A DNA stretch of 64,000 nt from Escherichia phage 236Ecol005PP. The position numbers were made by a program, and so were the translations under genes. Shown one piece after another: positions 4,762 to 7,127 of this stretch (positions are counted from its first letter, which is position 1; each line of letters starts with the position of its first letter). The notes under the pieces were generated by a model. That model saw only the letters and a program-made list of their open reading frames with translations. It ran no database searches and was not told the DNA's origin. Location of the stretch: the sequence record PP434423.1; one strand, written 5' to 3'.

Positions 4762-4894
4762 CATTTTGTGAAAAAATTTTTTTAAAAGTTTTAGGGAATT
4801 CTAGGGCAGGGAGGGGCAATTAAAGGATAGGATAATATATTATAAAGGGTAGAAACTAAATGATGCCTAGAGAGGTCCAAAAAGGCCTAGATAC

Positions 4895-4923
4895 TAAAAA
4901 GCCCCAACCTTTCGGCTGGGGCT
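4895..4923 (-). terminator. rho-independent terminator closing the tRNA/stable-RNA transcription unit
   Basis: minus strand AGCCCCAGCCGAAAGGUUGGGGCU followed by UUUUU. Confidence 0.6.
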
Positions 4924-4971
4924 AAGCCTTGCGGCAACCTTGTCGGGGTTCCACCTGCTAAGGCAAGTGTT

Positions 4972-5066
4972 TGTACGAAACGCCGGGATTTGAACCCGGT
5001 TATTGAGCAGTTGACGCTACTCAATATTTTTAAAAGGCCATATCTCGACCATATCCGAACGTTCCG
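4972..5066 (-). ncRNA. tRNA-like stable RNA (candidate equivalent of T4 RNA species 1/2)
   Basis: canonical T-arm CCGGG-TTCAAAT-CCCGG and 7-bp acceptor-like stem, but no standard anticodon arm. Confidence 0.3.
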
Positions 5067-5210
5067 TCAAAAACGCTACTCGGCTTACGGCAAAGATATT
5101 TCCTCGAATCGATAATTCGGTGCGCCGTTTCTGCTGTGATGTAAGAGGGCATCAATAAACGCAAAGATTATTAACGCAATTCCTTACTCAGGGAACATCA
5201 GTCCGACGAC

Positions 5211-5765
5211 TTACCGGTAGCGACCCGGTTTCTCATTTGGTATTTCAAATTGTGTAGATTTAGTATCTAATTTTTTAACTATGGAACTTATGTCATGAAA
5301 GAAAAACCATTCGCCATTTATATGGTCCTGATTATAAATGCTGTGCATATATTTTTCAAGTTCTACTGCATCCTGGGAATATCTAAATGATACTATTTTA
5401 AAACTTTTAAACGGTGAAAATGTATTTGCTGTTATAACTCTAACATCAGGTTCTATACTTCTTCCTATTTTATAATAATTAGGATTTGTAGTATCTACCA
5501 TTATGTATACGAAAGCCTGTCGATAGCTTTTTTCTATATCAAATTCATCTTTAAATTTCAAAAGATTTAGGGCGGCAGTCCTACAAAATACTTTCCATTT
5601 TGACAAGCGTTTGGCTTCAGTCATAGAAAAGAATTTTTTCTTATCTGTTATTTTAAGAAAAGCAACATTTTCAATTAGTTCTTGTGTTATTTCAAAATTA
5701 CCGCGGTATATTAATCCAGCTTTTATAGCCAAATTAATTTGGTCCCAGTCTACATCACTTCTCAT
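5211..5765 (-). CDS. T5orf172 / GIY-YIG-like domain protein, 184 aa (possible seg-type mobile endonuclease)
   Basis: C-terminal AFVYIMVD...NYYKIGRS...GEWFFF resembles the T5orf172 GIY-YIG-like fold; ATG start. Confidence 0.7.
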   Translation of the reverse strand: MRSDVDWDQINLAIKAGLIYRGNFEITQELIENVAFLKITDKKKFFSMTEAKRLSKWKVFCRTAALNLLKFKDEFDIEKSYRQAFVYIMVDTTNPNYYKIGRSIEPDVRVITANTFSPFKSFKIVSFRYSQDAVELEKYMHSIYNQDHINGEWFFFHDISSIVKKLDTKSTQFEIPNEKPGRYR

Positions 5766-5786: not shown

Positions 5787-5863
5787 TGGCCAGGGTGAAA
5801 GGATTCTAACCTTTAACCTGCGGTTTAGAGGACCGCTACTCTATACAATTGAGTTACACCCCG
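5787..5863 (-). tRNA. tRNA-Arg (anticodon UCU)
   Basis: hand-folded cloverleaf; anticodon loop CCTCTAA; T-loop TTAGAAT; encoded CCA. Confidence 0.55.
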
Positions 5864-5989
5864 TAATTAGTTCACAGCAATACCTACTCCAACAATCAAG
5901 ATGTCTTCACACGAAATTAAGAGAAGAGTGATCAGTTCAACCACTATAATCGCGTCAAGTAGATATTAATGTGACAACTGTCACAAGTT

Positions 5990-6064
5990 TGGCGGACATG
6001 CATGGATTCGAACCATGGACCAATTGATTAACAGTCAACTGCTCTACCACTGAGCTACACATCC
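5990..6064 (-). tRNA. tRNA-Asn (anticodon GUU)
   Basis: hand-folded: GGATGTG acceptor, GCTC/GAGC D-stem, loop CTGTTAA, T-loop TTCGAAT, encoded CCA. Confidence 0.7.
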
Positions 6065-6068
6065 AAAT

Positions 6069-6155
6069 TGGTGGGGAGTGATGGAGTCGAACCACCCGAG
6101 TCGCAATGACAATGGATTTACAGTCCACACCGCTACCTCTACGGGATAACTCCCC
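6069..6155 (-). tRNA. tRNA-Tyr (anticodon GUA), long variable arm
   Basis: anticodon arm GTGGA-CTGTAAA-TCCAT as in bacterial tRNA-Tyr; type II variable arm; encoded CCA. Confidence 0.7.
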
Positions 6156-6168
6156 TAATTCGTAATTT

Positions 6169-6243
6169 GGTGGCCCTGGGTGGAATTGAACCACCATCTG
6201 GCGATTATGAGTCGCTTGCTTGAACCTTCCAGCTACAGGGCCT
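6169..6243 (-). tRNA. tRNA with CAU anticodon (Ile-lysidine type as in T4, or Met)
   Basis: anticodon loop CTCATAA; T-arm GGTGG-TTCAATT-CCACC; encoded CCA. Confidence 0.7.
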
Positions 6244-6244
6244 T

Positions 6245-6319
6245 GGTGCTGATTGACGGAATCGAACCGCCGACCTTCTCATTACAAGTGAGTTGCTCTA
6301 CCTACTGAGCTAAATCAGC
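6245..6319 (-). tRNA. tRNA-Thr (anticodon UGU)
   Basis: GCTGATT acceptor, loop CTTGTAA, T-loop TTCGATT, encoded CCA. Confidence 0.8.
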
Positions 6320-6325
6320 AAAAAC

Positions 6326-6415
6326 TGGCGGAGGCGATAGGATTTGAACCTATGAGTCGCCGGAGCGACTGCCGGTTTTCAAGACCGGTGCATTAAACCA
6401 CTCTGCCACGCCTCC
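6326..6415 (-). tRNA. tRNA-Ser (anticodon UGA), long variable arm
   Basis: anticodon arm CCGGT-CTTGAAA-ACCGG; type II variable arm; encoded CCA. Confidence 0.8.
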
Positions 6416-6417
6416 AG

Positions 6418-6491
6418 TCTCCGCGGCAGGATTTGAACCTGCGACATTCTGCTCCCAAAGCAGACGCTCTACCAAACTGAGCTACACGGAG
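6418..6491 (-). tRNA. tRNA-Pro (anticodon UGG), CCA not encoded
   Basis: anticodon loop TTTGGGA; T-arm GCAGG-TTCAAAT-CCTGC; 3-prime end lacks CCA. Confidence 0.75.
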
Positions 6492-6501
6492 TAAATTAAA
6501 T

Positions 6502-6575
<74 letters not shown>

Positions 6576-6581
6576 AAACTT

Positions 6582-6668
6582 TGGTACGAGAAGTGGGACT
6601 CGAACCCACAAGGAAATCATTCCGCAGCATTTTAAGTGCTGTGCCTTTACCAATTTGACCATTCTCGC
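6582..6668 (-). tRNA. tRNA-Leu (anticodon UAA), long variable arm
   Basis: anticodon arm CAGCA-CTTAAAA-TGCTG; T-arm GTGGG-TTCGAGT-CCCAC; encoded CCA. Confidence 0.8.
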
Positions 6669-6669
6669 G

Positions 6670-6742
6670 CTGGGAATAAAGGACTCGAACCTTTGCATCT
6701 AGCAGTCAAAGTGCTATGCCTTATCAACTTGGCTAATTCCCA
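6670..6742 (-). tRNA. tRNA-Gln (anticodon UUG), CCA not encoded
   Basis: anticodon arm TAGCA-CTTTGAC-TGCTA; T-arm AAAGG-TTCGAGT-CCTTT. Confidence 0.75.
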
Positions 6743-6839: not shown

Positions 6840-7127
6840 TTACCATTTATGATAATACATGTTTACGATGCATTCAAGACCCAAAGGATTCTTGAAAATA
6901 TCATATTCAAGAGGACCTTTTTCTGTTTCAATAAAGAAATCAAAATTTACTGTATTAAATTTACGGTCTTCCTTCACTAATTTAACTTGAGAAGATGAAC
7001 GGTCAATGTAAACCTTTTCAACTTCAAAACATGTTAAAATGCCATAATCGTCAATCAAGGCTTTAGCCGCGTCTTGATCATATTTATATCCATTTTCAAT
7101 GGATGATACTTTCGCATAAAGAATCAT
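6840..7127 (-). CDS. hypothetical protein, 95 aa
   Basis: ATG start; compact ORF between tRNA cluster and ip locus. Confidence 0.6.
   Translation of the reverse strand: MILYAKVSSIENGYKYDQDAAKALIDDYGILTCFEVEKVYIDRSSSQVKLVKEDRKFNTVNFDFFIETEKGPLEYDIFKNPLGLECIVNMYYHKW

Follow-up and report, generated by a model that had tools for sequence, protein, structure and literature searches.

The 3′ end of the tRNA operon in a T4-like Escherichia phage very probably encodes the stable RNAs rnaD and rnaC, the latter with a conserved tRNA-like fold

What is encoded at positions 4924-5210 of Escherichia phage 236Ecol005PP, between an intrinsic terminator and the stop codon of an open reading frame (ORF)? 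The stretch analysed, hereafter the window, comprises 64,000 nucleotides (nt) of this T4-like (Tequatrovirus) phage (PP434423.1); window coordinates are used throughout, and all features described lie on the minus strand. An earlier note, made from the letters alone, had described a transfer RNA (tRNA)-like element with a perfect T-arm in this interval and had pointed to it as the expected location of the stable RNAs of T4. We conclude that the interval very probably encodes rnaD (species 2 RNA) followed by rnaC (species 1 RNA) of the T-even phages, with a probability of about 0.88 that covers the identity and the fold of the two RNAs and excludes their function. They are the final genes of the tRNA operon, placed before a 50-nt trailer and an intrinsic terminator. 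Both genes have been known for 50 years and are textbook features of T4; the comparative structure model is what we add here.

A megablast search of 50,697 phage records with positions 4880-5230 matched 759 records, nearly all of them T4-like enterobacterial phages, and T4 itself is 97.1% identical to this segment. In the T4 and RB6 records rnaD directly follows tRNA-Arg and rnaC begins six bases further on, at homologous positions, exactly where the earlier note had placed the stable RNAs. The order tRNA-Arg, rnaD, rnaC, terminator and e.8-like gene is common to T4 and the present phage. We set the gene boundaries by mapping the features of RefSeq T4 (NC_000866.4) across to the window, and the ends given are those of the T4 annotation. 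Defined in this way, rnaD spans 5119..5236 (118 nt) and aligns with the 119-nt rnaD of T4 with one indel. The gene for rnaC, a tRNA-like stable RNA, spans 4974..5112 (139 nt); it is identical to its T4 counterpart at 135 of 139 positions, with no gaps, and scores 165 bits with the covariance model described below. The four differences are all structure-neutral: one affects a bulged base, a second replaces a U-A pair by U.G, a third replaces G.U by G-C, and the last exchanges a purine for a purine in the T-loop. Just 5′ of the annotated rnaC 5′ end lies the six-nt spacer between the two genes (5113..5118), which reads GAAUUA here and AAAUUA in T4. The limits 4924-5210 first drawn around the locus proved too narrow: they cut rnaD, whose first 26 nt (from 5236) lie inside ORF 5211-5765.

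During T4 infection the rnaC and rnaD RNAs are both detected as late RNAs, RNAC by northern blot (PMC9697503); the status of rnaC as a stable RNA of about 140 nt rests on this blot, made in T4 and hence in a phage other than the present one. Many GenBank records nevertheless place hypothetical-protein coding sequences (CDSs) over rnaC and rnaD, and such automatic annotations imply that the interval encodes a small protein. We find this barely conceivable. ORFs of 41-45 amino acids (aa) do exist on both strands, and hypothetical proteins are listed under the match in many records, but all of these ORFs start with TTG; as the earlier note had it, the interval holds no credible ORF, with zero ATG-started ones in 4924-5210. 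Moreover, the curated T4 and RB6 records annotate RNAs and not CDSs, the stems carry compensatory substitutions, and the T4 product was seen as RNA on the northern blot.

The minimum free energy (MFE) of rnaC is −52.4 kcal/mol, with z = −4.4 against shuffled sequences. We collected homologues by lower-stringency BLAST and by pattern scans of IMG/VR and metagenomes. BLAST found them in Tequatrovirus, Mosigvirus, Dhakavirus, Gaprivervirus, Karamvirus, Winklervirus, Tegunavirus, Kanagawavirus and Marfavirus-like Klebsiella phages. A model of 53 base pairs was tested on a MAFFT alignment of 30 distinct sequences, with 500 shuffles and, as a control, with partners slid by 1-3 columns. Pairing is kept in 91.5% of cells, versus 82% after shuffling and 37-48% after sliding, and 29 of the 53 pairs change on both sides, a count reached by none of the 500 shuffles. 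A covariance model built from this alignment led to the same outcome on 36 distinct aligned homologues, which represent at least nine named genera. All 36 keep an acceptor stem, a T-arm, a hairpin resembling a variable arm, an arm of about 70 nt and two complementary hexaloops. The comparison supports a conserved tRNA-like fold for rnaC, with every predicted helix backed.

The acceptor stem joins CGAUUCG (5105..5111) to CGUUUCG (4976-4982), the latter belonging to the 3′ end of the RNA (4974..4982) together with U 4975 at the discriminator position and A 4974. The 7-bp acceptor-like stem first described next to the T-arm is therefore part of rnaC, as a stem of seven positions, of which five form Watson-Crick pairs in this phage and two, in the centre, are U.U mismatches. 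In Yersinia phage phiR1-RT it is a perfect stem of 7 base pairs (bp), CAGUCCG/CGGACUG, in which the U.U positions have become U-A and C-G. Pair 3:70 alternates between A-U and G-C among the homologues. The stem is followed by U-[A/U/C]-C-A in all of them, and the C and the A (4973-4972 here), at the positions of C75 and A76, are invariant; the 3′ end encoded in the DNA is U-A-C-A here and U-CCA in the Klebsiella Marfavirus-like phages.

The T-arm, CCGGG-UUCAAAU-CCCGG, was read correctly to the letter; it occupies 4983..4999 within rnaC, and the acceptor strand 4982-4976 follows at once. Its stem is 100% paired, with two covarying pairs. The loop is UUCAAAU here and UUCGAAU in T4, an A versus a G at the purine-57 position. 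A separate observation concerns Winklervirus and a related clade, where the seven-base T-loop of rnaC is non-canonical (UGCAUCC, UGCAUUC or UGCAUGC; L003:1509-1654, L026:405-550, L027:396-541, L033 and L041) and all other features are kept. Since the Winklervirus-type rnaC carries UGCAUYC, the classical T-loop is not strictly required.

Upstream of the T-arm, the 12-nt loop proposed in place of an anticodon arm gives way to a more elaborate architecture. It consists of a hairpin at the place of a variable arm (5001..5026; 10 bp and the 6-nt loop CGUCAA at 5011-5016), an A/U-rich linker of 8 nt, UUUAAAAA (5027..5034), and an extended arm of about 70 nt (5035..5104). In the hairpin (helix 5), 8 of 10 pairs show changes on both sides. 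The linker is single-stranded, being unpaired in both the MFE and the consensus structures, and its AAAAU core is conserved. The extended arm, with four helical segments and a closing AGG/CCU, replaces the D-arm and the anticodon arm; 15 of the 25 pairs in its helices 2 and 3 change on both sides. The linker of Tequatrovirus rnaC also contains CUUUUAA (5028-5036), the same heptamer as in the anticodon loop of E. coli tRNA-Lys. We rejected mimicry of that loop as a general feature, as the word is not conserved in other genera; it is probably a coincidence in A/U-rich sequence.

Could rnaC be a decaying pseudogene that arose from a class II tRNA by an insertion, with the T-arm and the acceptor stem as relics? 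Neither ARAGORN nor Rfam calls it a tRNA, its acceptor stem contains two U.U mismatches, and some homologues have a non-canonical T-loop. Decay is, however, hard to reconcile with the 29 compensatory pairs out of 53 and the 91.5% of pairing kept, which speak for purifying selection on structure, or with the parts foreign to tRNA, the extended arm and the hexaloops, being the best conserved. Nor is there detectable similarity to the phage's own tRNAs beyond the T-loop, the one resemblance found by pairwise alignment of rnaC with all ten of them, on which basis we also discarded a derivation of rnaC from one of these genes. A pseudogene is thus highly improbable.

The fold brings two hexaloops into play. 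The apical loop of the extended arm, UUGACG (5065..5070), and the loop of the variable-arm-like hairpin, CGUCAA (5016-5011), are exact reverse complements, and we propose them as partners in a kissing-loop interaction. All six positions are complementary in 36 of 36 distinct rnaC homologues, with no single-sided change. Two sequences from Tegunavirus have UUGAUG/CAUCAA, a switch from C-G to U-A; six Marfavirus-like sequences have UUGGCG/CGCCAA, a switch from A-U to G-C. The hexaloop of the variable-arm-like hairpin is otherwise conserved, its two changing positions being those that covary with the apical loop. The collection of homologues was unbiased in this respect: one scan left both loops free and another left the two covarying positions free. 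We also considered an anticodon-like role for the apical loop (UGA, or UGG in Marfavirus-like phages) and set it aside, as this hexaloop pairs with the other.

The covariation of the hexaloops indicates a putative kissing-loop contact that would close the body of rnaC. The lower part of the extended arm would measure about 20 bp, and the apical stem, the kissing helix and the variable-arm-like hairpin together about 21 bp. The contact would fold the molecule into two side-by-side antiparallel stacks of about 20 bp each. In the searchable literature, which excluded the T4 papers of 1975-1985 and the Miller 2003 review, we found no mention of a comparative rnaC model or of a kissing loop.

Read as DNA, the same two TTGACG words form an inverted repeat (5065-5070 and 5011-5016), and they might instead be half-sites for a protein or −35-like elements, their covariation then arising from one dimeric protein that reads both. 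TTGAC is indeed the core of the sigma-70 −35 hexamer, and covarying half-sites, being identical words on opposite strands, would leave the same pattern in an alignment. Yet each word exactly fills the 6-nt loop of a hairpin whose stem covaries independently (helices 3 and 5), which makes the half-site reading very unlikely. The promoter scan reported no matching −10 element at these words, and in the variant phages both depart from the −35 consensus.

How close does this fold come to known RNAs? Like canonical tRNA (RF00005), and class II tRNA in particular, rnaC has an acceptor stem of seven positions that stacks on a T-stem of 5 bp, capped by a UUCRAAU loop; the acceptor and T-arm half is that of a tRNA, and in phiR1-RT both U.U positions are Watson-Crick pairs. 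It shares with class II tRNA a long hairpin where the variable arm would be, and a base at the discriminator position followed by N-C-A. In several genera it also shares the setting of tRNA, inside tRNA arrays. In contrast to canonical tRNA, it has neither D-arm nor anticodon arm, an arm of about 70 nt standing in their place, and does not form a cloverleaf; most sequences have two U.U in the acceptor stem, and neither ARAGORN nor the Rfam model detects the RNA. ARAGORN finds ten tRNAs in the window, none of them in 4974-5236, and no transfer-messenger RNA (tmRNA). The Rfam tRNA model gives no match in 4974-5236 at the gathering score or at E values up to 10. Against Rfam 15, rnaC and rnaD match no family, with only chance-level matches such as isrK and anti-hemB, the best at E = 1.9.

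The tRNA-like domain of tmRNA (SsrA) offers a similar topology: an acceptor stem beside a T-arm, no D-stem, and a long helix at the place of the anticodon stem. However, rnaC has no mRNA-like reading frame, no chain of pseudoknots and no G3.U70 pair for alanine identity, pair 3:70 being A-U or G-C, and neither ARAGORN nor Rfam calls a tmRNA here. Loops of six or seven bases are also known to kiss by Watson-Crick complementarity in RNA I/RNA II of ColE1 and at the dimerization initiation site (DIS) of human immunodeficiency virus 1 (HIV-1). The contact in rnaC, as judged by covariation only, would instead be intramolecular and close a tRNA-like body.

The fold of rnaD is weakly defined in the single sequence (z = −1.3); an RNAalifold consensus of 15 homologues shows compensatory changes. 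It comprises a 5′ hairpin, ACCGG-GUCGCUA-CCGGU (5229-5213, inside ORF 5211-5765), with an invariant loop and covarying pairs; a nearly invariant closing stem, GUCGUCG/CGGCG-C-AC (5210-5204/5127-5120); an internal helix in which compensatory changes occur; and an apical hairpin that varies. The 3′ end is CACCA in T4, CACCG here, and CACAG or CACCU in relatives. We considered rnaD as a CCA-ended tRNA-like RNA and dropped the idea, the CCA of T4 not being conserved in relatives. Its upstream neighbour varies as well: tRNA-Arg in T4 and RB6, a 184-aa ORF here, and elsewhere small ORFs ending 1-3 bases before it. The T4 layout, with the CCA of tRNA-Arg directly before rnaD, is not found in this phage, where the 184-aa ORF precedes; the abutting CCA is a trait of that layout rather than of the RNA. 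When a T4-like phage was evolved on E. coli ECOR34, the same single-nucleotide polymorphism (SNP) in rnaD appeared in all three lines (PMC12685909).

The company kept by rnaC differs between genera. In Serratia phage LC53 its neighbours are tRNA-Phe and tRNA-Trp, with spacers of about nine bases; Karamvirus phages carry it between tRNA-Trp and tRNA-Gly; and in Karamvirus and Winklervirus alike the spacers to the flanking tRNA genes are tRNA-like. The annotation of Enterobacter phage PG7 even turns the 3′ part of rnaC into a 95-nt tRNA-Met (L004:1554-1648). The comparison exposes a routine annotation error: many records give rnaC and rnaD as hypothetical proteins, and one gives part of rnaC as tRNA-Met. 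Neither RNA is covered by an Rfam family.

Because each RNA occurs without the other, rnaC and rnaD are independent modules. IME08 and VR20 have rnaD without rnaC (nhmmer detects no rnaC in either locus, and the covariance model none in IME08), and rnaC occurs without rnaD in five genera, Karamvirus and Winklervirus among them. In RB49, the one more distant T4-like phage examined, there is no rnaC match and no annotated tRNA gene within bases 50-99 kb (49 kb). A full-length copy of rnaD adjoins a tRNA gene in Escherichia phage A5-4, of the Vequintavirinae (L059:606-726), the sole non-T4-like record among the matches listed; it has compensatory changes in two helices and reflects horizontal transfer or else a chimeric assembly. 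No homologue of rnaC or rnaD was found in 5,426 E. coli genomes or in PLSDB plasmids, and a pattern scan covering 185,579 species genomes of bacteria and archaea also gave none.

Such a patchy distribution bears on the main rival explanation. It holds that the two RNAs have no function of their own: as structured 3′ ends or spacers of the operon they would guide processing and shield the tRNAs from 3′ exonucleases, acting in cis only, and would accumulate merely through their stability. The absence of rnaC from IME08 and VR20 and of rnaD from Karamvirus and Winklervirus fits this explanation, as do the state of RB49 and the place of both genes, last in the operon and followed by the terminator. 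PMC3014915 (2010), PMC9697503 (2022) and PMC12685909 (2025) describe no phenotype; all three still give the function as unknown, in agreement with the earlier note, which had called it undefined. On the other side, the 145-nt architecture of rnaC, with its invariant loops and loop-loop covariation, is kept in at least nine named genera. Its fold is also the same whether it is flanked by tRNA on either side, preceded by an ORF or followed by a terminator, and a protective hairpin would need none of this. The convergent rnaD SNP in the three ECOR34-evolved lines (PMC12685909) hints at a host-dependent role. We hold a by-product to be possible, if on balance doubtful, and give it about the same odds as the mimicry proposed below.

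How would the two RNAs mature? In our account, rnaC is a remodelled tRNA, in which the acceptor stem, the T-arm and the variable-arm-like hairpin are kept and the D and anticodon arms are replaced. RNase P would cut at the base of its acceptor stem and by the same cut free the 3′ end of rnaD, which exonucleases would trim back to the closing stem. In older work on T4, a dimeric precursor of species 2 and species 1 reportedly accumulates when RNase P is defective. The 3′ trailer of rnaC would be taken off in the manner of a tRNA trailer, and CCA might be repaired or added. This trailer (4924..4973, 50 nt, with two small predicted hairpins) is outside the T4 rnaC annotation, and its removal would be required to reach the annotated 3′ end; it is nearly identical in T4 and RB6 and absent in genera with a tRNA 3′ of rnaC.

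A hairpin at the junction, CGAAU-UAUCG-AUUCG (5105..5119), had been listed as a further element of the locus, and it is present in the sequence. As a separate element it does not stand: it lacks conservation and straddles the boundary of rnaD and rnaC, so that the acceptor stem of rnaC has to share its 5′ strand with the 3′ arm of the hairpin. T4 has a mismatch in it (CAAAT), and genera with a tRNA in front of rnaC lack it altogether. We read it as an alternative pairing that competes with the acceptor stem, relevant at most in the precursor.

As to function, we suggest very tentatively that rnaC is a tRNA mimic: its acceptor/T-arm half may engage tRNA-binding proteins, the locked body staying out of decoding. 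Such a mimic would occupy or divert a host or phage factor that recognises tRNA; rnaD is a separate structured RNA module, able to occur without rnaC. A more specific proposal, and a rather unlikely one in our estimate, is that rnaC acts as a phage tRNA decoy that titrates or blocks a tRNA-targeting immune nuclease or sensor of the host, or another tRNA-binding factor, with rnaD as a second, independently mobile module that affects host range. If true, it would explain why rnaC travels inside phage tRNA arrays, why both RNAs are dispensable in laboratory hosts, and why phage lines adapting to a natural E. coli isolate converged on an rnaD SNP.

Several points weigh against our account of the two RNAs. 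The 5′ and 3′ ends given for this phage are taken over from the T4 annotation. In 34 of the 36 sequences the acceptor stem contains two U.U mismatches; the non-canonical T-loop of the Winklervirus type (UGCAUYC) means that strict tRNA mimicry is not universal; and the kissing loop, inferred from covariation alone, is backed by only two evolutionary events. With regard to maturation, the part given to RNase P goes back to early studies of T4. In the T4 record, rnaC begins with a single U ahead of the predicted acceptor stem and its last bases are U-A, with no CCA, which does not fully agree with tRNA-type maturation of the ends. Finally, nothing ties rnaC to a partner protein, and deletions of the tRNA region of T4 are viable in laboratory hosts; any function of rnaC is therefore conditional.

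The acceptor/T-arm core and the covarying loop contact of rnaC, together with the rnaD consensus, provide precise handles for experiment, and loop mutants of rnaC, with compensatory double mutants, can be designed directly. The presence of rnaC in tRNA arrays and the finding of rnaD apart from rnaC, in one case outside the T4 family, bear on why phages carry tRNA clusters and on how they meet tRNA-targeting defences.

Upstream of the two RNAs lies a ten-tRNA array in the same orientation (5787..6742), identified by ARAGORN and Rfam as Gln, Leu, Gly, Pro, Ser, Thr, CAU, Tyr, Asn and Arg. At the end of the operon, a minus-strand intrinsic terminator (4891..4923) reads AGCCCCAGCC-GAAA-GGTTGGGGCT and then TTTTT, with the stem at 4923-4900 and the T-run reaching about 4891, in accordance with the terminator previously placed at 4895-4923; the terminator scan gives it 10 pairs, 7 of them G-C, and it is kept in T4 and RB6. 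No T4 late promoter (TATAAATA) was found between the tRNA array and rnaD, the nearest lying upstream of the array at 7081-7088. There is a strong sigma-70-like promoter match at 5331-5359 on the minus strand (TTGAAA, 17 nt, TATAAT; 11/12), inside the 184-aa ORF and about 95 nt upstream of rnaD. It could give rnaD and rnaC a transcript of their own in this phage.

The 184-aa ORF (5211..5765, minus strand) lies between tRNA-Arg and rnaD, a place where it is absent in T4 and RB6 and present in phage REP2. Its product has a MUG113/T5orf172 (GIY-YIG-like nuclease) domain (Pfam MUG113, 2.6e-9; T5orf172, 3.4e-6; PHROG 5032), and the ORF looks like a homing-endonuclease-like insertion. Its last eight codons and its stop make up the first 26 nt of rnaD, the stop codon falling in the 3′ strand of the rnaD 5′ hairpin. 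Just upstream of the rnaD start, the ORF contains a remnant of a T4-type tRNA-Arg, its last 6 nt (ATACCA). On the other side, some Tequatroviruses have an extra 157-aa ORF downstream of rnaC, as in Shigella phage Sf21 (L057:682-1155) and REP2 (L042:2197-2670); in Sf21 rnaC and rnaD are both intact despite this insertion. The rnaD-rnaC pair thus seems to have a hot spot for insertions on either side.

The neighbouring tRNA genes show some variation of their own. Three clearly different tRNA-Arg(UCU) sequences occupy one locus in this phage (5787-5863), T4 (L001:2419-2493) and RB6 (L002:2416-2491), a diversity that might come from co-conversion with mobile endonuclease genes or from selection by tRNA-targeting defences. 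The spacer between tRNA-Asn and tRNA-Arg (5864-5989, minus strand) is a non-coding stretch of 126 nt, versus 4 nt in RB6, and holds the inverted repeat TGTGACA-GT-TGTCACA on the minus strand. A 2026 report (PMC13096335) describes cleavage of the tRNA-Tyr variable loop by the Septu defence during T6 infection. In the present phage tRNA-Tyr (6069-6155, minus strand) scores 30.2 bits with the Rfam tRNA model, whose threshold is 29, and the other nine tRNAs score 57-73 bits.

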